A stretch of 40,208 nucleotides of DNA from a virus (lineage: Duplodnaviria > Heunggongvirae > Uroviricota > Caudoviricetes): the IMG/VR virus record IMGVR_UViG_2671180254_000014; one strand, 5' to 3'. Shown here piece after piece: positions 2,442 to 40,208 of this stretch. Under the pieces are notes generated by a model. That model did not search any database. It was not told where the DNA came from and saw nothing but the letters and a program-made list of their open reading frames with translations. Within the stretch, counting starts at the first letter, position 1; each line of letters begins with the position of its first letter. A program made the position numbers and the translations under genes.

Positions 2442-3383
2442 GTGAATAATATGACCGATATTAACGATGTAATCAAGACCATTGATGAACTTATTGATGG
2501 CGGCGTACTGACGCAGTATGCCATCGCCAGAGAGGCGGGAATTTCCGACGGCACATTATCGGCTTTCCGTAAGGGAAAATATAAAGGCGATAACGCTGCT
2601 GTGGCTGCTTCCCTGCGCTCCTGGTATGAGAACTGGAATAAACAAAGCGCACTGCCGGAACCGCCGCAGTTTGTGGAAACTCAGACAGTCCAGGAGCTGC
2701 GCGCACTGTTTCAGGCGGTTCGCCTGATGGGCTGTATTAACGTTATTGTGGGCGTACCGGGTGTGGGTAAAACGGCCACTGCCCGTAATTACTGCCAGGA
2801 GCAACCAAACACCTGGATGATCACCCTGTCACCCGCGCACTCCAGCGTCACGGAGTGTCTGCTGGAGCTGGCCGATGCGCTGGGGATTGATTACACCCGC
2901 GCGAACAAAGGGGCATTATCCCGCGCCATCCGCCGTCGCCTGACGGGAACGCGTGGACTGGTGATTGTGGATGAGGCGGATCATCTTGGTATTGACGGTC
3001 TGGAGCAACTCCGGGCAATTCAGGACGCCACGGGGATCGGGATGGTGCTTATTGGTAACCCGCGCGGATTGTTTAAAGGTGGACGCCGCGCCTTTGATGA
3101 TTTATCGCGCCTGTTCAGCCGTCTTGCCCGTACAAAACAACTTCGCAAGGCCAAAAAGGCGGATGTGCTGGCCATTGCCAGGGCATGGGGTATCAGTGGT
3201 GAGGCCGAGCTGGCCGTCATGCAGGCTATCGCTGAAAAGCCGGGAGCATTACGTGTTCTGACACATACGCTTAACCAGGCGTGGCTCACCGCCAGCGGTG
3301 AAGGCGCGGCGCTGACAGAAAAACATATTAATGCGGCCTTTAAAGAGGTTTATACCAACCCTGAATTACTCTCACAGGTGTGA
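2442..3383 (+). CDS. B: Mu B-like transposition ATPase
   Basis: 313-aa ORF with Walker A GVPGVGKT and Walker B-like VIVDEAD; follows transposase. Confidence 0.9.
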   Translation: MNNMTDINDVIKTIDELIDGGVLTQYAIAREAGISDGTLSAFRKGKYKGDNAAVAASLRSWYENWNKQSALPEPPQFVETQTVQELRALFQAVRLMGCINVIVGVPGVGKTATARNYCQEQPNTWMITLSPAHSSVTECLLELADALGIDYTRANKGALSRAIRRRLTGTRGLVIVDEADHLGIDGLEQLRAIQDATGIGMVLIGNPRGLFKGGRRAFDDLSRLFSRLARTKQLRKAKKADVLAIARAWGISGEAELAVMQAIAEKPGALRVLTHTLNQAWLTASGEGAALTEKHINAAFKEVYTNPELLSQV

Positions 3384-3607
3384 TTATGGCGGTATTTAAT
3401 ATTCCTGATATTTACGGACGCTTTTACCTGGTTAATTTCGATAACGTGAAGGTGATTTCACTGGCCGAAAATAAAGCATGTGGCGATTTACTTTTTGAAT
3501 TTAATGACCGCACACGAATGGTGATATCTGCCGGACTTGATCGCGAAGGTGCGACAGAAGTTTACAGCGGAATATGCCGTTCTGTTGGTGCGAAACAAGT
3601 CAGCTAA
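3380..3607 (+). CDS. hypothetical early protein
   Basis: 75-aa ORF overlapping B stop (GTG 3380 or ATG 3386); same strand. Confidence 0.45.
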   Translation: MIMAVFNIPDIYGRFYLVNFDNVKVISLAENKACGDLLFEFNDRTRMVISAGLDREGATEVYSGICRSVGAKQVS

Positions 3608-3874
3608 ATGAGGTGTTATATGAATATGCAATCCTGCGGTAACAAAATGAATTTATTCGACTCCCTGAACAGCGCGCGCCGTCTGACCGAACTTGCCGGT
3701 GCGGTACTGGAACGCAGTAAGCGCTATCCGCAACGTTTTGCACTGAAAACCACGCCGCCGGTAGGCAACGTGCAGGGAACCGGTGAAATTGAAATCACCA
3801 TACAGACCAACGGCCTGCGCCGCCGTGTGAAGGCCACCCGCATCAGCGGCTGCACGGTTTACTGGGAGGTGTGA
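3608..3874 (+). CDS. hypothetical early protein
   Basis: 88-aa ORF, tightly packed; alternative ATG at 3620. Confidence 0.45.
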   Translation: MRCYMNMQSCGNKMNLFDSLNSARRLTELAGAVLERSKRYPQRFALKTTPPVGNVQGTGEIEITIQTNGLRRRVKATRISGCTVYWEV

Positions 3875-8557: not shown

Positions 8558-9043
8558 ATGAATCGCGCTTCCCTGATTACCTTAATACATGTCGCAAAAC
8601 GCGATCTACAGCTTGACCATGATACCTATACATCCGCGCTGCTGGCAGCCACCGGCAAATCCAGTTGCCGTGATATGTCACCCGGTGAGTTATCCCGCGT
8701 GCTGGATGTTTTCAAAAAACGCGGTTTTAAAGTGCGTCANNNNNNNNNNNNNNNNNNNNNNNNNNNNNNNNNNNNNNNNNNNNNNNNNNNNNNNNNNNNN
8801 NNNNNNNNNNNNNNNNNNNNNNNNNNNNNNNNNNNNNNNNNNNNNNNNNNNNNNNNNNNNNNNNNNNNNNNNNNNNNNNNNNNNNNNNNNNNNNNNNNNN
8901 NNNNNNNNNNNNNNNNNNNNNNNNNNNNNNNNNNNNNNNNNNNNNNNNNNNNNNNNNNNNNNNNNNNNNNNNNNNNNNNNNNNNNNNNNNNNNNNNNNNN
9001 NNNCAGCCCTGGATATGTCGGAACGTGCAGTGATGAGTTATGA
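8558..9043 (+). CDS. GemA-like protein (Mu gene 16 family), interrupted by N-run
   Basis: N-terminus MNRASLITLIHVAKRDLQLDHDTY... resembles Mu GemA; N-run 8740-9003 hides the middle, and the 3' end could be 9043 or 9083 depending on frame. Confidence 0.5.
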   Translation: MNRASLITLIHVAKRDLQLDHDTYTSALLAATGKSSCRDMSPGELSRVLDVFKKRGFKVRXXXXXXXXXXXXXXXXXXXXXXXXXXXXXXXXXXXXXXXXXXXXXXXXXXXXXXXXXXXXXXXXXXXXXXXXXXXXXXXXXXXXXXXXXSPGYVGTCSDEL

Positions 9044-9153: not shown

Positions 9154-9576
9154 ATGGCTGAAACACAGATGAGCATGTTTGGTGACAGCGAACAGCTGCA
9201 CGCGCTGATTGACCGTCTGGATGATATTCCTGATGATGAGCTGAAAAAGAACTGGCCCGGCACGCTGCGGGACCTGGTTGATGTGATCAGTGCTGAACTG
9301 CACCGTCAGGGGATTGAACCTGCTCAGGCGGGAATGCTTGCCCGTAAGGTTGCAGCCGCACAGGCCGGGTACATGGGCGGGCGTGGTTATTATCTCCCGG
9401 TCGGTGAATCCCTTTTCACCGAACTGCGCAATAATGAAATTTTTTCCCGCTGGAGCCAGGGCGAAAAAATTGAAACCCTGCGCCGCCACTACCAGATGTC
9501 AGAGACGCAGATTTACTCCGTTATCCGCAACCAGCGTCGCCTGCATCAGGAGCGCACGCAGCCCCGGCTTTTCTGA
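9154..9576 (+). CDS. Mor/C-family transcriptional activator
   Basis: 140-aa ORF; acidic N-terminus, central GGxxYYLPxG-like core and C-terminal helix-turn-helix region as in Mu Mor/C; only one family member seen. Confidence 0.8.
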   Translation: MAETQMSMFGDSEQLHALIDRLDDIPDDELKKNWPGTLRDLVDVISAELHRQGIEPAQAGMLARKVAAAQAGYMGGRGYYLPVGESLFTELRNNEIFSRWSQGEKIETLRRHYQMSETQIYSVIRNQRRLHQERTQPRLF

Positions 9577-9647
9577 TATTCCGCAAATCCTGCCCCCTTT
9601 TCCTCACGGTTACGCTGACTCAGAGAACACCATGAGACAGCGTAACA

Positions 9648-17632: not shown

Positions 17633-17809
17633 TGGTTTAAGGTATACAAACGCATTACCTTACCCTCTTCAGGCGCGTGTCGTGATTTTCTAACCTGTAT
17701 TTAACGGGCTTTAAAATCTGCGTGAAGCGCCTTTCTCATTTTTCCCCTGTCAGCACTTTCTGAAGTCCCGCAAAACCGGCCCCGAAAAACACCGGCTTAT
17801 GCTGCCGGA

Positions 17810-31220: not shown

Positions 31221-32096
31221 TGTTTCATGTTGATAATAATTCCGGCGTGGCGAATATGCCTGCGCTGGCACCGGCGCAGAGTAATACCACCACCTGGTTT
31301 ACCGAAGGTGACGGACAAAAAGGTATCAGCTGGATTGGTCAGGACTGGCTGAATATTCTCCAGGCCGAACTGCTGAATATTCTGGCTGAAGCCAGTATTC
31401 AGCCGGATAAGGCGCAGTTAAACCAGCTTACGCTGTCCATTAAAGCCATTATCGCTGCGAATGCCTTTTCCCGGAAAAATAACCTGAAAGAAATTGCTGA
31501 TGCCGGTGCGGAGGCCCAGCGTCTGGCCCGTGGTTATCTTGGTCTGGGGACGCTTGCCACAAAAAACAGTCTTGGTCCCGCTGACGTTAATGCCCTGGCG
31601 AAGGATCAGAATCTCGCCGACCTGGAGAATAAGGGAACCGCCCGTAATAATCTGGATGTTTACAGNNNNNNNNNNNNNNNNNNNNNNNNNNNNNNNNNNN
31701 NNNNNNNNNNNNNNNNNNNNNNNNNNNNNNNNNNNNNNNNNNNNNNNNNNNNNNNNNNNNNNNNNNNNNNNNNNNNNNNNNNNNNNNNNNNNNNNNNNNN
31801 NNNNNNNNNNNNNNNNNNNNNNNNNNNNNNNNNNNNNNNNNNNNNNNNNNNNNNNNNNNNNNNNNNNNNNNNNNNNNNNNNNNNNNNNNNNNNNNNNNNN
31901 NNNNNNNNNNNNNNNNNNNNNNNNNNNGCCCGGAACATGGGAAAGCTGGGATCTGAATCTGGGGGGCGGCAATGTTCTTACCGGAATTAAAGTACAGGAT
32001 GTCGGTAAGAATACGGCAGATAACGTCGGCGGCGTGTATTACCGGCCGTTGCAGTATCTGTTAAATGGAGCATGGGTGACGGCTGCAAGTATATAA
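31220..32096 (+). CDS. tail fibre protein (constant N-terminal part plus currently joined variable C-terminus), interrupted by N-run
   Basis: N-terminal 148 aa to 31665, N-run 31666-31927, C-terminal 56 aa to TAA 32094-32096 in a different frame, so the gap length is not true. Confidence 0.65.
31531..31665 (+). repeat. left inverted repeat of invertible tail-fibre segment (at least 135 bp)
   Basis: Identical to the reverse complement of 33146-33280; ends at an N-run so true extent unknown. Confidence 0.85.
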
Positions 32097-32700: not shown

Positions 32701-33280
32701 TTATAACTGAGATACCGTAATCCATGTACCTCCGACTAATTTTTGCAGGGGTCTGAATGCTATAAAATCGTTTGAAGCATCAACTTTACTGTCAATCTGC
32801 AGGCCTGCCATAACATTACCGTACGCAGAGTAATATGCCCCACCGTACATTACCTGCCTGTTCTCTGCTCCCAGCCTGATATCCTGGATATATCGGGAAT
32901 CCGCATCCTGCTGTGTTATACCAGAAGTGATGTTTATGTCCTGCGTCCCGTCAAAGGGAACCCCATTAATATTTCTTGGGGTGGCGAGTCTATTCGCGGC
33001 AACGGCGGTGCCGTCCGATGGCAGAGCATTCGCCGCCCTGTTTACCGTTTCCCGTAAACCGACGTTATCGATAAAAGCCCCTTTATCCGGAATGTCTGCG
33101 CCGTTCTGCTCCCTGCGCAGGTAACGGTTATCACCTTCGCTTTTGCTGTAAACATCCAGATTATTACGGGCGGTTCCCTTATTCTCCAGGTCGGCGAGAT
33201 TCTGATCCTTCGCCAGGGCATTAACGTCAGCGGGACCAAGACTGTTTTTTGTGGCAAGCGTCCCCAGACCAAGATAACCA
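32701..33280 (-). CDS. alternate tail-fibre variable C-terminal segment (S'-like), 5' end in N-run
   Basis: Hand translation of minus strand from 33280: [44 protein letters not shown] (identical to residues 105-148 of the plus-strand fibre) then a divergent ~149 aa ending ...[10 protein letters not shown], stop at 32701-32703; not in ORF track because it lacks an ATG. Confidence 0.7.
33146..33280 (-). repeat. right inverted repeat of invertible tail-fibre segment
   Basis: Reverse complement identical to 31531-31665; abuts N-run 33281-33331. Confidence 0.85.
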
Positions 33281-33331
33281 NNNNNNNNNNNNNNNNNNNN
33301 NNNNNNNNNNNNNNNNNNNNNNNNNNNNNNN

Positions 33332-33834
33332 GTGCAGGATGTGAGCTGTTTTTCGAAGACAGAATAAGCGGTAAGACAAGGGAGCGTCCCGGACTTAAAC
33401 GCGCATTAAAGCGACTCCGGCCAGGGGATACCCTGCTGGTCTGGAAACTGGATCGCCTTGGACGCAGTATGCAGCACCTTGTCCTTTTAACAGAAGAACT
33501 CCGGCAACGCGGCGTTAACTTCCGCAGCATTACGGACAATATTGATACATCCACTCCCATGGGACGTTTCTTTTTCCATATAATGGGCGCGCTGGCGGAA
33601 ATGGAGCGGGAACTCATTATTGAACGTACACGCGCGGGTCTTGCTGCTGCCCGTGCTCAGGGGCGTCATGGCGGCAGACCTCAGAAACTGACAGAGAAAG
33701 AGCGGGAGCAAATCGCCCGTTTGCTGGCTAATGGCGAGTCCCGTAAACAAATCGCACTGATATTTGATATTGGCCTTTCCACCCTTTATCGTTATTTTCC
33801 TGCCTCACCAGCTCCGTCACCAAAAGTACCGTGA
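33332..33834 (+). CDS. gin: serine DNA invertase (Gin/Hin/Pin/Cin family), N-terminus lost in N-run
   Basis: In-frame translation from 33334 gives ...ELFFEDRISGKTRERPGLKRALKRLRPGDTLLVWKLDRLGRSMQHL... then GALAEMERELIIERT... and a C-terminal helix-turn-helix; catalytic Ser region falls in the gap. Confidence 0.85.
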
Positions 33835-33919: not shown

Positions 33920-35974
33920 ATGTCAGACTCCAAGTGGAAAATGCTCTCCGCCATGCCCGGAGAGTTTTCAGTCAAGGTTGCCGGTGGCACGGTGGCATTT
34001 ATTGAAAGCCCTTTCCGCCCTTCGGGTAATAAAGGGGGGATCACCTTCGCAGACTGCGTGATCCGCTTCAGCACGAAAGAGCCATTATGGGTAATGCCGG
34101 TATCCGGTAATCCCAGTGCAGAAATCACCAGTTCAGGCGTGACTGGCATCATTCCAATCACATCTGACGTGGCCGGAACGCTCACGCCCTCCGACTGGAA
34201 TGCACCGGATAACGCCGGGCCTTCCGGTAGCACGAATGGCAGCAGTTCAGAGCCGGAATATTACTTTGTTGTCATTCTCGCGGGTCAGTCAAATGGCATG
34301 GCCTACGGCGAGGGGCTGCCGTTACCGGATTCGTTTGACCGCCCGGACCCACGCATTAAGCAACTGGCACGCCGCAGTACGGTAACGCCCAACGGTACGT
34401 CGTGTACATACAACGACATCATTCCGGCAGACCACTGCCTGCATGATGTTCAGGATATGAGCGGGATAAACCACCCGAAAGCTGATCTGGCAAAAGGCCA
34501 GTACGGGACTGTCGGTCAGGGGTTGCATATTGCCAAAAAACTGCTTCCCTATATCCCACAGAATGCCGGGATACTTCTGGTGCCCTGTTGTCGTGGCGGG
34601 TCAGCATTCACCACTGGAGCCGACGGCTCATTCAGTGAGGCCAGCGGTGCTTCCGCTGATTCTTCACGCTGGGGGGCCGGTAAACCTCTGTATCAGGACC
34701 TGGTAAGCCGCACCAAAGTCGCGCTGGCGAAAAACCCGAAAAACAAACTTCTGGCTGTGGTCTGGATGCAGGGAGAGGCAGACCTTGCCTCAGGAAGCCA
34801 GCAGCATAATAGTTTATTCACGGCCATGGTTCAGCAGTTCAGAACTGACCTGGCTCCGCTTGCTGCGCAGTGCGTGAGTGGAAATGCCACCACGGTGCCG
34901 TGGATTTGCGGTGATACCACGTATTACTGGAAAAACGCTGGCACCGATAAATATGAGGCAGTATACGGTGGCTACAAAGGCAAGGAAGCACAGAAAATTT
35001 TCTTTGTACCGTTCCTGACGGATGAGAATGGACAGAGCACGCCAACGAATGCTCCGGCGGAAGACCCGGATATTGTGGCTGTCGGGTATTACGGTGCAGC
35101 ATCCCGAACCCAGGGCAGTTTTGTTTCGACACAGCGTGACAGCCATTTCAGCTCATGGGCACGCAGGGGCGTCATTTCAGACCGTCTGGCCTCAGCTATT
35201 ATGCTCCATGCAGGGCGCACGGCTGAACTGATGCGCGGGCAGACCGTGACACCACCGGATGAGAAGCCGTCACCTGATACACCATCAAAACCGTCCACGC
35301 CACCCGCAGACACCACGACGATGAGTACGCTATTTGCTTACCGGGCATCTGAGTCTGAAGGACGGTTGACACCACAGGGTTGGGCTGCCGGAGGTGGCAA
35401 GGCTCAAATCGTGGATGATGCCGGAGCCAGCGGGGGTAAGGCAATGAAACTGACCAAGGAAACAGGAAGAGCCCCCTGGTACCTTGAGCATGATGCTGGT
35501 AATGGTGCGGACCTGCTGGGTAAAGGTGGTCTTGTCAGTTGTCGTTTTAAACTCGATGGCGCGCTTACGGCTAATCAGTACGCACTGGCGCTGTACTGGC
35601 CGGTTTCTGCCCTGCCGCAAGGGGTTACTCTGGAAGGAAATGCCGGTCATAACCTGCTGGCATCGTTCTACGTACAGAGCGATGCCACAGACCTTAACGT
35701 GATGTATCACAAAGGAAACACGGCGCAGAACACGAAGCTGGGGTCATTCGGCGCATTTAATAACGAATGGCATACGCTGGGCTTCCGTTTTGCCGGTAAC
35801 AACAGTATTGAGGTGACGCCGGTCATTGATGGTAAGGACGGGACACCATTCATGCTGTCGCAGTCTCCGGTCGGCACGTTTACGGCAGACAAGTTGCGCG
35901 TGACCGATATCACTAAAAATGCGACTTACCCGGTACTGATTGACAGTATCGTGGTGGAAGTGAATAACGCGTAA
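33920..35974 (+). CDS. SASA/SGNH-type carbohydrate esterase (sialate O-acetylesterase-like) with C-terminal beta-sandwich-like domain
   Basis: 684-aa ORF; GQSN motif at residues 122-125 (YYFVVILAGQSNGMAYGEG) and downstream WMQGEAD block; Ser/Pro/Thr-rich linker then ~200-aa Gly/Asn-rich C-terminal domain. Confidence 0.55.
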   Translation: MSDSKWKMLSAMPGEFSVKVAGGTVAFIESPFRPSGNKGGITFADCVIRFSTKEPLWVMPVSGNPSAEITSSGVTGIIPITSDVAGTLTPSDWNAPDNAGPSGSTNGSSSEPEYYFVVILAGQSNGMAYGEGLPLPDSFDRPDPRIKQLARRSTVTPNGTSCTYNDIIPADHCLHDVQDMSGINHPKADLAKGQYGTVGQGLHIAKKLLPYIPQNAGILLVPCCRGGSAFTTGADGSFSEASGASADSSRWGAGKPLYQDLVSRTKVALAKNPKNKLLAVVWMQGEADLASGSQQHNSLFTAMVQQFRTDLAPLAAQCVSGNATTVPWICGDTTYYWKNAGTDKYEAVYGGYKGKEAQKIFFVPFLTDENGQSTPTNAPAEDPDIVAVGYYGAASRTQGSFVSTQRDSHFSSWARRGVISDRLASAIMLHAGRTAELMRGQTVTPPDEKPSPDTPSKPSTPPADTTTMSTLFAYRASESEGRLTPQGWAAGGGKAQIVDDAGASGGKAMKLTKETGRAPWYLEHDAGNGADLLGKGGLVSCRFKLDGALTANQYALALYWPVSALPQGVTLEGNAGHNLLASFYVQSDATDLNVMYHKGNTAQNTKLGSFGAFNNEWHTLGFRFAGNNSIEVTPVIDGKDGTPFMLSQSPVGTFTADKLRVTDITKNATYPVLIDSIVVEVNNA

Positions 35975-35986
35975 GCAGGATAAAAA

Positions 35987-36019
35987 AATGCCGCCGGTAA
36001 GGGAAAACAAGAAACCGGC
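35987..36019 (-). terminator. hairpin with T-run on minus strand (GCCGCCGGT...ACCGGCGGC)
   Basis: 9-bp GC-rich inverted repeat with 15-nt loop just after esterase stop; flanked by A-runs on plus strand, so T-run follows on minus strand. Confidence 0.3.
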
Positions 36020-36118
36020 GGCAAAAAGATCGTTATATCCAAAGCAAAAAATGCAGTGCACCTTTTTACCTAACAGATATTACCGGTGTCAACACCATGT
36101 CAATAATTGGGAGGGATA

Positions 36119-36301
36119 ATGACATTTTTACAGCTTATTTTATTGTATTTCTGCACGGCAGTATGTGCGTTATATCTGGTGAGTGGTGGTTATAAGGCCA
36201 TCAGAAATTATGTTCGCCGCAAAATTGAGGACGCAGCAGCTGAAAAACTCAGTAAAACAGCGCAGGTAACTCCGCTCCCAAAAGACCCGACCCAGCCCTG
36301 A
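36119..36301 (+). CDS. small membrane protein (60 aa)
   Basis: GGGAGGG RBS 4-5 nt before ATG 36119; one N-terminal transmembrane helix then a basic tail. Confidence 0.4.
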   Translation: MTFLQLILLYFCTAVCALYLVSGGYKAIRNYVRRKIEDAAAEKLSKTAQVTPLPKDPTQP

Positions 36302-36336
36302 TTGCAGGGCTTTATTCCCGCATAAGGAGGATATAC

Positions 36337-36591
36337 ATGCCAGAAATTAAAGGCACCGTCACTGAAGACCTGGTAAAACAGGCACTGTATTCCGGTGAAG
36401 TAAATAAGTTGCTGAAAGCGCAGGTCCGCAAGGATTTTGAGGCACAAATCGACACTTACGTTGATGAAGTGCTGGCAAAACTTATTGGGCCAGCAGTTGC
36501 GGCCAGTGATGCTGATAATGAGCCGAAAACCGACGCGCAGCCAGAGCAACCAGACCCGGCTCAGCCCGGAACTGACAGTACCATGATGTAA
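36337..36591 (+). CDS. hypothetical protein with acidic Pro-rich C-terminus
   Basis: 84-aa ORF with AAGGAGG RBS 7 nt upstream of ATG. Confidence 0.5.
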   Translation: MPEIKGTVTEDLVKQALYSGEVNKLLKAQVRKDFEAQIDTYVDEVLAKLIGPAVAASDADNEPKTDAQPEQPDPAQPGTDSTMM

Positions 36592-36758
36592 CAATACAAA
36601 CCGGTGGTGTCCTCTGCCGGTTTGACACTAATGAAAACATCTTTGCCGCTATCCAGCCATATGTAATCGCTGGATAGTATTTCGTATTCAGAAATATAGC
36701 TGCTTATGGAGCAGTCAATCCTGCTTCCCCATCCGGGCAGGCAAATGAACCGGTATCA

Positions 36759-37052
36759 TTAGTCCGATTCACGCTTTTGTAGAATCGTTCCCAGAATGCT
36801 ATACAGCTCATTAGCCTGTTGCTCCATCATTGAGACGGAGGCTATACGGTGCAAAGTGATTTCAGGAGGTGGCACACCTCCATCTTCTTGCTGTGGAGGA
36901 AAAACATAAGATTTAATAAAAAAGTTGAAGCATATGAACTCTCCCGCACTCGAACTGTATTTGCAGGCATCTGAATAATCGGAAAAATAATCATTATAGA
37001 TTTCCGCATTTTCAATCATTTTTCGATTTCTCGTCGTTACATGATTGTCCAT
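36759..37052 (-). CDS. hypothetical protein in AT-rich segment, reverse strand
   Basis: 97-aa minus-strand ORF with TAAGAGG RBS; AT-rich composition unlike surrounding phage genes; convergent with the two small plus-strand ORFs. Confidence 0.45.
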   Translation of the reverse strand: MDNHVTTRNRKMIENAEIYNDYFSDYSDACKYSSSAGEFICFNFFIKSYVFPPQQEDGGVPPPEITLHRIASVSMMEQQANELYSILGTILQKRESD

Positions 37053-37244
37053 AGCAGCCTCTTACGCTGGCAATTAACCAATTGACTTCTATAAATTAGT
37101 TGATTTGTTTGCTTTGCGGTATTCAAATGTACAATCATTCAGCACTTATGCGTTACAGCACCGTTTAAAATTAGTGATCAAACTCATAAATTTTCGCTAA
37201 TGACATTTCGTGTTATTTGTTGTATCAATTAAATAAATCAAATC

Positions 37245-37261
37245 GATCGTTTTTGTCGATC
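37245..37261. promoter_or_regulatory. paired TCGATCG (Dam GATC) sites upstream of com-mom
   Basis: GATC at 37245-37248 and 37258-37261 (13 bp apart), ~50-65 bp upstream of com ATG; a third GATC at 37176-37179; Mu mom is regulated through upstream GATC methylation. Confidence 0.4.
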
Positions 37262-37308
37262 GATTGAGTGATAAAGATATCAACAACAAAGCAGGAGGTT
37301 ATGCGGCC

Positions 37309-37509
37309 ATGTATCGAAACATACGGTGCCGACATTGTAACAAGCTACTGGCACGAGCCAGCTTCAGTTATCTGGAAGTTAAATGTCCGCGCTGTAAAAC
37401 CCTCAATCAAATCACATCTCAGAGCGCCACAGAGCACCCCACATACACAAGGAAATCCTGTCGTGGGGAACAGAAAGCAAGTTACATCCCGTATCATCAG
37501 CACGCCTGA
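37309..37509 (+). CDS. com: Com, zinc-finger translational activator of mom
   Basis: [26 protein letters not shown] closely parallels Mu Com as I recall it (IRCKNCNKLL...RCPRCK); GCAGGAGG RBS; ATG 37309 inside ORF 37264..37509. Confidence 0.8.
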
Positions 37510-38200
37510 ACTTATTCACTATAACGACAATATCGTCGGTTATGGCTCCCGTGAGTTACGGGTTGAGACAATAAGTTGCTGGCTGGCCCGGCTGGTCGTC
37601 GTCAATAAACATTACAGCCATCGTTTCGTAAATAATTCCTACCTTCATCTGGGCATATTTTCAGAACGGGAGCTGGTTGGCGTAATGCAATGGGGTTATG
37701 CCCTTAATCCAAACAATGGTGCACGCGTCGTAACTGGCACGCAGAACCGCGAATATATGGAGCTTAACCGGTTATGGCTGCATGACTGTATGCCGAGAAA
37801 CTCCGAATCAAGGGCAATCAGTTACGCGCTCAAACTAATCAGACAACTTTATCCGCAGGTGCAGTGGGTTCAGTCGTTTGCAGATGAGCGTTGTGGCTGT
37901 CTTGGTGTCGTGTACCAGGCAAGCAATTTTGATTATGTAGGCAGTCATGAAACAACATTCTATGAACTTGATGGCGAGTGGTATCACGAGATTTGCAAGA
38001 ATGCAATCAAACGAGGAGGACAGCGAGGTGAACATCTGCGGGCTAATATCGACAGAGCCAGTGTTCATAAATTCCGTCAGTTTCGTTACATCCGGTTTCT
38101 GGACAAGAGAGCCAGAAAACGCCTTAACACAAAGCTATTCAAAGTCCAGCCTTACCCAAAACCACAAACAGTTAAAACTGGTTTGAAAGAGAGTGAATGA
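37463..38200 (+). CDS. mom: Mom-like DNA modification protein; start codon uncertain
   Basis: ORF 37268..38200 overlaps com 3' end in another frame as in Mu; GTG 37463 preceded by AAGGAAA is the only plausible start near the com stop; identity rests on synteny with com. Confidence 0.65.
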
Positions 38201-38332
38201 ACGCTTAAAAACTCATTCTAAAACTCAAAAGAAAAGCGCCGATTTAGTATCAAATAAGTTGCGTATCGGTGTTTTTCAGCGGTATCAAATGAAATGCAAA
38301 TCGGTATCAAAAAAATCGCCGCGCTATAATCA

Positions 38333-38517
38333 ACGCCACGGGGTTACGCCATGTCTGGCATTTACGCTGTACGGACACCTTAAAAGGTCCTTTACTGGAA
38401 AGTTATGAAATCTGCCCAATACCGGAAGTGGTGCTGGCAGCGCCAGAAGATTTGGTCGACTCTGCGCAGCGGCTTAGCGAGGTATGTCAGTGGCTGGCGG
38501 AAGCTGCACCGACGTAA
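38333..38517 (+). pseudogene. hyaF: 3' fragment of host hyaF (hydrogenase-1 operon), interrupted by the prophage
   Basis: Frame ending TAA 38515-38517 translates ...INATGLRHVWHLRCTDTLKGPLLESYEICPIPEVVLAAPEDLVDSAQRLSEVCQWLAEAAPT, matching my recalled HyaF C-terminus; lies directly upstream of appC; not in ORF track because it has no start codon. Confidence 0.55.
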
Positions 38518-38644
38518 AAAGACGGTAAGTATCGCTTTCAGTCTTATGAATATCGCAATCGGCGAATACCTCTGGTCGTAGAGTTTCAGGATAAAGAGGG
38601 AGATCTAACATTATCGGGTTATTTTTCTCTCTTCGCCTACAGGA

Positions 38645-40208
38645 GTGCGCATGTGGGATGTCATTGATTTATCGCGCTGGCAGTTTGCTCTGACCGCGCT
38701 GTATCACTTTTTATTTGTACCCCTTACCCTGGGGCTGATTTTTTTGCTGGCTATCATGGAAACCATTTACGTGGTCACCGGCAAAACAATCTACCGCGAT
38801 ATGACGCGCTTCTGGGGTAAGCTCTTCGGTATCAACTTTGCTCTTGGCGTGGCTACCGGCCTGACCATGGAGTTTCAGTTTGGTACTAACTGGTCATTCT
38901 ATTCCAACTATGTGGGCGATATTTTTGGCGCACCGCTGGCGATGGAAGCATTAATGGCCTTCTTCCTCGAATCCACCTTTGTCGGGCTTTTCTTCTTCGG
39001 CTGGCAGCGGCTGAATAAATACCAGCACCTGCTGGTGACGTGGCTGGTGGCGTTCGGTTCAAATCTCTCTGCATTGTGGATATTGAATGCCAACGGTTGG
39101 ATGCAATACCCGACCGGTGCGCATTTTGATATCGACACCCTACGTATGGAGATGNNNNNNNNNNNNNNNNNNNNNNNNNNNNNNNNNNNNNNNNNNNNNN
39201 NNNNNNNNNNNNNNNNNNNNNNNNNNNNNNNNNNNNNNNNNNNNNNNNNNNNNNNNNNNNNNNNNNNNNNNNNNNNNNNNNNNNNNNNNNNNNNNNNNNN
39301 NNNNNNNNNNNNNNNNNNNNNNNNNNNNNNNNNNNNNNNNNNNNNNNNNNNNNNNNNNNNNNNNNNNNNNNNNNNNNNNNNNNNNNNNNNNNNNNNNNNN
39401 NNNNNNNNNNNNNNNNNNNNTGGCGGCGATGGAAGGGGAGTGGCAAACGGAACCTGCTCCTGCACCGTTCCATGTGGTTGCCTGGCCGGAACAGGATCAA
39501 GAGCGTAACGCCTTTGCCATCAAAATTCCCGCGCTGTTAGGGATCCTCGCCACTCACTCATTAGATAAAACCGTGCCGGGTCTGAAAAATTTGATGGCTG
39601 AAACCTACCCACGCTTGCAACGCGGACGTATGGCCTGGCTGTTAATGCAGGAAATATCGCAAGGCAATCGTGAGCCGCATGTGTTGCAGGCATTCCGGGA
39701 ACTGGAAGGTGACCTGGGCTACGGCATGTTGCTCTCCCGCTATGCGCCGGATATGAATCATGTCACAGCCGCACAGTACCAGGCGGCGATGCGTGGCGCG
39801 ATACCTCAGGTTGCGCCGGTATTCTGGAGTTTCCGCATCATGGTGGGCTGTGGTTCCCTGCCGCTACTGGTGATGCTGATTGCGCTTGTCCAGACGCTGC
39901 GTGGCAAAATCGACCAGCATCGCTGGGTGCTGAAAATGGCGCTCTGGAGTTTGCCGTTGCCGTGGATTGCGATTGAAGCCGGGTGGTTTATGACCGAGTT
40001 TGGTCGTCAGCCGTGGGCGATACAGGACATCTTACCGACATACTCCGCGCACTCCGCTTTAACCACAGGACAACTGGCTTTCTCACTGATCATGATCGTA
40101 GGGCTTTACACCCTGTTCTTAATCGCCGAAGTCTACCTGATGCAGAAATATGCCCGTCTGGGGCCGAGCGCGATGCAGAGTGAACAACCGACGCAGCAAC
40201 AGGGGTAA
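38645..40208 (+). CDS. appC: cytochrome bd-II ubiquinol oxidase subunit I (AppC/CbdA), interrupted by N-run
   Basis: N-terminus [28 protein letters not shown]...[22 protein letters not shown] is cytochrome bd subunit I, AppC paralog rather than CydA; N-run 39155-39420; stop at 40206-40208. Confidence 0.85.

Follow-up and report, generated by a model that had tools for sequence, protein, structure and literature searches.

Does the right end of the prophage carried by the virus record IMGVR_UViG_2671180254_000014 (Caudoviricetes; 40,208 nucleotides, the whole of which is called the window here) encode a com-mom DNA-modification module, and is that module controlled as its namesake in bacteriophage Mu? 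A first reading of the sequence, referred to below as the original prediction, had proposed both. The segment at 37170-38200 is an ordinary, intact com-mom operon of a Mu-like transposable prophage of Escherichia coli. We hold the identity of the module and its translational switch with great confidence, and consider it very probable that the operon, taken as a whole, works as in phage Mu; the gating of its transcription through Dam and OxyR we regard as likely, at a clearly lower level of confidence. Copies of com-mom identical to the window's are already annotated in RefSeq as Com and Mom, and the finding is not new: com-mom is the textbook anti-restriction system of Mu, its chemistry has been solved recently, and an intact E. 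coli prophage copy adds nothing conceptual.

The com and mom genes and their products

37309-37509, plus strand: com, encoding a 66-residue zinc-ribbon RNA-binding translational activator (Pfam PF10122, identity to Mu Com, same call by the NCBI pipeline PGAP)
37463-38200, plus strand: mom, encoding a 245-residue enzyme of the GNAT fold (Pfam PF25680, identity to Mu Mom, PDB 8bv8)
37293-37298, plus strand: Shine-Dalgarno sequence of com, AGGAGG (from the sequence; invariant among relatives)

The product of com scores 48.2 bits against the Pfam family PF10122 (Zn_ribbon_Com; cut-off 22.9, E 7.5e-13), which bears out its recognition, in the original prediction, by a zinc-finger motif. Its cysteines, C7-x2-C10 and C27-x2-C30, align with the CxxC...CxxC arrangement of Mu Com, and all four zinc ligands are kept; the overall identity to Mu Com, just 45%, is one of the differences between the two phages. 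A search of the PDB with Com returned just weak matches to S27e zinc ribbons, and scans of Com, Mom and the neighbouring genes with PADLOC and NCBIfam yielded nothing useful. On the identical prophage, PGAP calls com at the equivalent of 37309-37509 and mom at the equivalent of 37463-38200. At one RefSeq locus (L001, 7310-7510) it labels Com a 'DNA-binding transcriptional regulator', whereas in the experimental literature the protein is an RNA-binding translational activator.

The downstream overlapping reading frame had been taken for mom by its position, and the family similarity of its product agrees with this. The protein covers positions 1-202 of the 202 of the Pfam Mom profile (PF25680; 261.2 bits, cut-off 27.1, E 7.8e-78), is 78% identical to Mu Mom over 229 amino acids without a gap, and matches the solved structure of Mu Mom (PDB 8bv8) with an E value of 2.4e-123; the helix-turn-helix-like insertion (residues ~175-209) likewise aligns gap-free. 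In an alignment of 25 homologues, residues H50, Y51, R103, S116, D141, R143, Y151 and W40 of the window protein are invariant. They correspond to H58, Y59, R111, S124, D149, R151, Y159 and W48 of Mu, the first seven of which are needed for activity and the last for the dimer (PMC13219725; PMC7261163, the latter counting residues from the GUG). Mom moves glycine from Gly-tRNA(Gly) onto the N6 of adenine in double-stranded DNA, after which the glycyl group rearranges to a carbamoylmethyl adduct (PMC13219725). By family membership, and with all the catalytic residues of Mu Mom kept, the window protein is predicted to be a Gly-tRNA(Gly)-dependent adenine-modifying enzyme; its glycine transfer would lead to N6-carbamoylmethyl-adenine and would shield phage DNA from many restriction enzymes. 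The gene order is that of Mu (and also of D108 and SfMu), the overlap of com and mom measures 47 nt in the window and 50 nt in Mu, and in both phages the two genes are the final ones before the right end.

A putative RNA switch at the start of mom

37422-37438, plus strand: putative Com target on the mRNA, GAGcgCCacaGAGcaCC (exact fit to a bipartite selected motif; compensatory changes)
37437-37468, plus strand: translation-inhibition stem-loop (minimum free energy fold; covariation; Mu equivalent)

In Mu, the proven GUG start of mom is held by the translation-inhibition structure, a short stem, as part of its 3' arm, and Com recognises CC(N)2-3GAG in a small hairpin 5' of this stem; systematic evolution of ligands by exponential enrichment (SELEX) gave the motif GAGNNCC(N)2-3GAGNNCC (PMC6483171). 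The window has the same layout. The GTG at 37463, which the original prediction had already placed inside the 3' end of com and linked to Com-activated translation, is in frame with the Mom domain. It stands 47 nt inside com and is embedded in a stem homologous to that of Mu with a Com target motif adjacent to it. The 5' arm of the stem is CCCCAC (37437-37442) and the 3' arm GUGGGG (37463-37468), the latter holding the GUG. The Shine-Dalgarno sequence of mom, AAGGA (37449-37453), stands in the loop. Folding, which had been proposed for the region around 37440-37520, recovers this structure: the minimum free energy fold of 37415-37485 contains the CCCCAC/GUGGGG stem and an inner helix that pairs the GG of AAGGA, so that the Shine-Dalgarno sequence is partly paired. 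The stem is 6 bp long with a 20-nt loop carrying the inner helix, whereas that of Mu has 5-6 bp and an 11-nt loop. Directly 5' of it, CCacaGAG (37427-37434) sits inside the GAGnnCC-N3-GAGnnCC of the window and can form a hairpin with a stem of 37424-37427 with 37434-37437, a 6-nt loop CACAGA and a closing C-G pair. A comparison of the mom leader of Mu, aaugCCugcGAGcaUCCCACggagaaacauuGUGGGA, with its equivalent in the window, gcgCCacaGAGcaCCCCACauacacaaggaaauccugucGUGGGG, therefore shows the same motif, the same stem and the same position of the GUG: a CCCAC/GUGGG stem with the GUG in its 3' arm, a Shine-Dalgarno sequence in the loop and a CC-N3-GAG hairpin directly upstream.

The pairing has been maintained in evolution. 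Across 15 distinct relatives, 96% of the alignment cells pair over both helices, and among control structures in which the partners had been slid against each other none pairs nearly as well. All four pairs of the Com hairpin show a two-sided compensatory change in some lineage; the arms read AUGC/GCAU in Mu and GCAC/GUGC in L033 and L085. The inhibitory stem consists of five invariant pairs and one covarying outer pair, which is C-G in nine relatives, U-A in five and U-G in one; at this outer pair both changes hit third codon positions and are synonymous, the one in com, the other in mom. Two alternative partners are available to nucleotide 37437, namely 37424 in the Com hairpin and 37468 in the inhibitory stem; its covariation extends to both (window type G/C/G, Mu type A/U/A), which fits a competition between the two structures. 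Among the E. coli variants of this prophage the RNA elements and the com Shine-Dalgarno sequence are invariant, and every com-bearing relative that has the CCCAC...GTGGG context keeps the GTG in frame. Two observations weigh against the switch: in the lineage of the window the Com hairpin has one C.A mismatch, and the folding z-score of 37415-37485, -1.18, is ordinary for the composition. Rfam has no family for the mom leader, and the sole match was a chance one to IS102 (E 0.9).

Translation of mom would then proceed as follows. A single transcript would carry com and then mom, with the mom GUG and its Shine-Dalgarno sequence held in the stem-loop and access of the ribosome blocked. Com made from the same mRNA, which is predicted to bind the adjacent CC-N3-GAG hairpin (37424-37437), would open the inhibitory stem, and Mom would be produced only after Com had built up.

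The GATC pair and the promoter

37241-37265, no strand assigned: palindrome AATCGATCG-N7-CGATCGATT with two Dam sites, GATC at 37245-37248 and 37258-37261 (sequence, homology to Mu, conservation)
37215-37229, no strand assigned: putative upstream OxyR-type half-site ATTTGTTGTATCAAT (7 of 10 consensus positions; without a GATC of its own)
37176-37179, no strand assigned: third GATC (present; not conserved; a role as operator is improbable)
37266-37291, plus strand: putative, most probable core-promoter region (distance alignment to Mu TAAGAT, -10-like hexamers of relatives, gtr geometry)

The original prediction had pointed to two TCGATCG sites 13 bp apart, 50-65 bp upstream of com. They are there, at 37243-37249 and 37256-37262, with GATCs starting at 37245 and 37258, 47-66 bp upstream of the com ATG at 37309. 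Together they form a perfect palindrome with 9-bp arms, a type of repeat that occurs only five times in the window, and among about five GATC gaps of 13 bp or less in the window theirs is the only one of exactly 13. The density of GATC, proposed earlier as a test against background, stands out in the 256-bp intergenic region (three, with 0.8 expected from composition) and does not in the wider 717 bp (three, with 2.5 expected); apart from 37176, 37245 and 37258 the stretch 36028-38602 is free of GATC. Taken by itself, density is barely above chance and not significant, a point that counts against control of the Mu type. Since this test is close to uninformative, an analysis of conservation was used instead.

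The sample comprised 163 loci with relatives of Mom, from viral and genome collections, and the pair was sought within 140 bp upstream of com. A 13-bp GATC pair is found at 35 of the 38 distinct com-bearing enterobacterial loci whose Mom is at least 72% identical, and at none of the 29 com-bearing loci with a more distant Mom. Among the more distant relatives collected are Desulfovibrio, alphaproteobacteria and Pseudomonas, groups most of which are not known to have Dam. The consensus of the pair is aATCGATCG.T..t..cGATCgATT, in which the GATCs and their spacing are fixed and the nine-base interior varies. The Mu counterpart, aaATCGATCGgtaatacaGATCGATTa, holds GATC2 and GATC3 13 bp apart in the frame aATCGATCG...GATCGATT and is preceded, as in the window, by the ATCAATTAAAT block; judged by this alignment the window pair is homologous to GATC2 and GATC3. 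Conservation and homology, not the count, are the decisive evidence for the pair. Its confinement to enterobacterial com-mom modules is a comparative detail and mildly new.

The third GATC, which the prediction had placed further up, is present at 37176, but the match to the control of Mu that had been read into it does not hold. It lies 69 bp from the pair, is missing in relatives of the L012 type (97% Mom identity) and does not correspond to Mu GATC1: the latter stands 18 bp ahead of GATC2 within the arm of the upstream half-site, and TATCAAT occupies its place in the window. Of the three GATCs in the OxyR region of Mu, the window has two, which abut or overlap the likely core promoter and are not set upstream of a site for an activator.

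Mom genes that are not preceded by com occur in lambdoid-type phages of Serratia, Yersinia and their relatives (Mom 66-70% identical, same Pfam family). At these loci (the viral contigs L049-L082, and L093-L097) com, the CCCAC/GTGGG element and the GATC pair are all missing, and the regulatory apparatus of the window is therefore specific to the Mu-type module. At the one such locus examined, L052, mom (2830-3699) stands between a Q-like gene of 230 amino acids and holin and endolysin genes; there it seems to be carried along in the late operon of a lambdoid-type phage and to lack control of the Mu kind.

What might the GATC pair bind? In the Dam/OxyR-controlled gtr operon of Salmonella phage P22, every GATC pair lies inside one OxyR dimer site, and Dam methylation abolishes the binding of OxyR (PMC2909390). 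The window pair has the form GATCG-N7-CGATC (37245-37261), as in the OxyR(A) and OxyR(C) half-sites of gtr, with the same 13-bp spacing, and within the palindrome the putative OxyR dimer half-site would span 37246-37260. A putative upstream partner, at 37215-37229, lies 31 bp before it, within a block invariant among the E. coli variants; the offset is also 31 bp in Mu (2648/2679) and is 32 bp in P22 gtr. Among 25 distinct contexts, 18 show a half-site match of at least 7 of 10 positions between -30 and -32, the background being 0.025 per position; these contexts share descent and amount to about seven lineages rather than 18 independent events. On the strength of half-site form, conservation and partner offset we therefore read 37215-37260 as a putative Dam-sensitive OxyR site. 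The palindrome (37245-37261) and its partner would probably make up a site for an OxyR tetramer, occupancy of which Dam methylation of both GATCs would prevent. The likeness to gtr has its limits: the genes controlled there, for O-antigen glucosylation, are unrelated, and gtr has three half-sites that offer two alternative positions to OxyR and lead to phase variation, whereas one pair and one partner are seen in the window.

The position of the promoter can be estimated from distances. Two weak candidate -10 elements follow the palindrome, TGaTAAAGA (37269-37277) and TATCAA (37278-37283), and either would most likely put the two GATCs on top of the -35/spacer region; in gtr, GATC3 and GATC4 similarly lie over the promoter, at -46 and -33, and the window pair would be placed alike if TATCAA were the -10 (PMC2909390). 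Near-identical E. coli variants do not differ in the 60 bp through the end of the palindrome or in the leader beginning with ATCA. The block separating these two stretches, 37266-37278, occurs in six versions, all of which keep a GA at one place and have ATCA next; five of the six keep TGA and AAAG. An upstream promoter, ATGACA (37200)-17-TATCAA (37223), is retained as no more than a minor possibility: its -7 T is missing, and the palindrome would fall at +6 to +30.

By its start position the window pair stands 51 nt before the com ATG, 27 bp closer than in Mu (78 nt). The com-mom regulatory regions fall into two spacing classes, a short one (-51 to -57) with the window type, L028, L029, L030 and Edwardsiella L085, and a long one (-76 to -83) with Mu, D108-like phages, L031, L087, L098, Symbiopectobacterium and Pantoea. 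The other short-class members have a -10-like hexamer 7-10 nt past the second GATC (TATACT, TATAGT, TAGATT). ATAACC, which is common to the late promoters of Mu (from oligonucleotide sequences, PMC4461284), lies 12-16 nt past GATC3 in Mu and in the long-class L031 and L087; the short class, that of the window, has no such motif and no recognisable activator site. Where Mu has the C-binding GATTATGCCCCAATAACC, a T6 spacer and TAAGAT, the window has ~20 bp of unrelated sequence.

Several of these results weigh against a promoter worked as in Mu. The second GATC is 47 bp from the com ATG in the window and 74 bp in Mu, and the Mu promoter layout is therefore not transferable. The C-site motif ATAACC was not found before the window com, and a scan for consensus promoters gave no plus-strand match reaching threshold upstream of com. 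The Mor/C-family late activator of the prophage (9154-9576) is just 40% identical to Mu C. Its candidate late-promoter box, CCGCAAAWCCKGCCCC-N13-TTAYGCT, occurs at 9581-9616 before lys (endolysin) and at 17768-17803 before the I-like head gene (two matches, 0.07 expected), and was not found upstream of com. As for OxyR, its half-site matches reach just 7 of 10, in AT-rich DNA. Two other words tried as activator boxes gave nothing: the only match near com to CATAAYCCC, a form of the Mu C-site motif, is on the wrong strand in the region of the com Shine-Dalgarno sequence, and the weak word AAATCYTGC was uninformative. Dependence of com-mom on the late activator, like the position of the promoter, is a prediction. 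The resemblance to the control of Mu mom that the original prediction had seen stands for the Dam/OxyR-type element and for the translational switch; for the promoter and its activation it stays conjectural, the Mu activator site not being recognisable.

The short spacing invites a bolder proposal, which we rate as unlikely but worth stating: in the short-class lineages the Dam-sensitive OxyR operator may have moved onto the core promoter, gtr-like, with its GATCs at ~-33/-46, and the late-activator site of Mu may have been lost. If this were true, transcription of com-mom would depend chiefly on whether two GATCs are methylated, and heritable ON/OFF switching in lysogens would be possible instead of strictly late, C-dependent expression.

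A further view, also unlikely, gives the palindrome to another protein. It would act chiefly as the operator of a factor from the phage or of some other host factor, for instance a Mor/C-family late activator that binds as a dimer to a dyad overlapping the -35, with GATCs that are incidental or serve a second purpose and no OxyR involved in this lineage. With any of the downstream -10 candidates the palindrome does sit where Mu late promoters have their C site (~-25 to -45), no other activator site is recognisable, and in Mu the C footprint abuts GATC3. However, the candidate late promoters of this phage, those of lys and the I-like gene, have another box in common and carry no GATC palindrome. 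The pair, moreover, is kept across phages with differing activators and downstream sequences, only its GATCs and spacing being fixed; it is absent from the distant com-mom lineages, most of which are not known to have Dam; and its form is identical to that of proven OxyR half-sites. A Dam-sensitive OxyR site stays the preferred reading of the palindrome.

Integrity of the operon and its prophage setting

The window carries genes for a Ner-like protein, MuA, MuB, the Mor/C-family activator, an endolysin, tail proteins, an invertible tail-fibre segment and a recombinase; its Pfam matches include Mu-transpos_C, Phage-MuB_C and Mor, as expected of a Mu-like transposable prophage. The terminal 2.3 kb of the prophage are 99-100% identical across 18 complete E. 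coli genomes, in each of which they are joined to a different host gene. Identity stops at ~38328, ~130 bp past mom, which places the right end of the prophage. The presence of the same prophage at many insertion sites implies recent transposition.

This bears on the idea that the module belongs to a decaying, unexpressed prophage remnant, its GATC pair and RNA elements being inherited relics, which we consider very improbable. In its favour, the expected -10 block exists in six variants among near-identical prophages and none is a good -10, a feature that could stem from selection to keep a toxic gene from being expressed leakily. Against it speak the two intact reading frames with all catalytic residues, the recent transposition, and the invariance of the operator block, the com Shine-Dalgarno sequence and the RNA elements among those variants. 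Such comparative regulatory details of an intact operon could guide the mapping of how mom toxicity is restrained in natural prophages.

Least probable of all is Com-independent translation of mom from a longer frame, open back to 37268 (a 310-residue reading frame, 37268-38200, in the list of open reading frames) with an ATG at 37301: although some database homologues are called at ~290-340 amino acids, this frame is not conserved, relatives that are 97% identical carrying an in-frame stop 84 nt upstream of the GTG with no further start codon in between and Mu a stop 27 nt before the aligned codon, the ATG is just 2 nt past AGGAGG, the Pfam Mom domain begins only at residue 31 of the GTG-initiated protein, and Mu Mom can do without the 10 residues that its RefSeq model places before the GUG (PMC13219725). 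Starts at 37268 and 37301 were rejected on account of the stop in close relatives, and the GTG start stands.

The host gene past the prophage end in the window encodes cytochrome bd subunit I. It begins at 38645, ~316 bp downstream of the right end, and the insertion may cut it off from its normal upstream region. Upstream of com, between the invertase and com, lies an accessory block of ~3.4 kb (33920-37052) that Mu does not have. It encodes a 684-residue protein with a SASA carbohydrate-esterase domain and DUF6645, and small DUF1378 and DUF826 proteins, families typically met in lambdoid prophages. On the minus strand of the block is a reading frame of 86/97 amino acids without a family match, which has a sigma-70-like promoter match of its own at 37073-37044.

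Perfect 135-nt inverted repeats (31531-31665 and 33146-33280) surround a 1480-bp segment with tail-fibre and assembly genes, adjoined by the recombinase gene (33262-33834, N-masked in part). The segment looks like an invertible host-range switch of the G-segment type; the arms of the Mu segment are ~34 bp, those of the window being much longer. Runs of N mask part of the gene upstream of the late activator (8740-9003), the start of the recombinase (~33280-33335) and part of the host cytochrome gene (~39150-39460). Finally, two records of Shiga toxin (Stx)-converting phages, LC727881 and LC727895, are annotated as containing an 'inserted Mu-like phage', the ends of which match parts of 37200-38330 at 92% identity.

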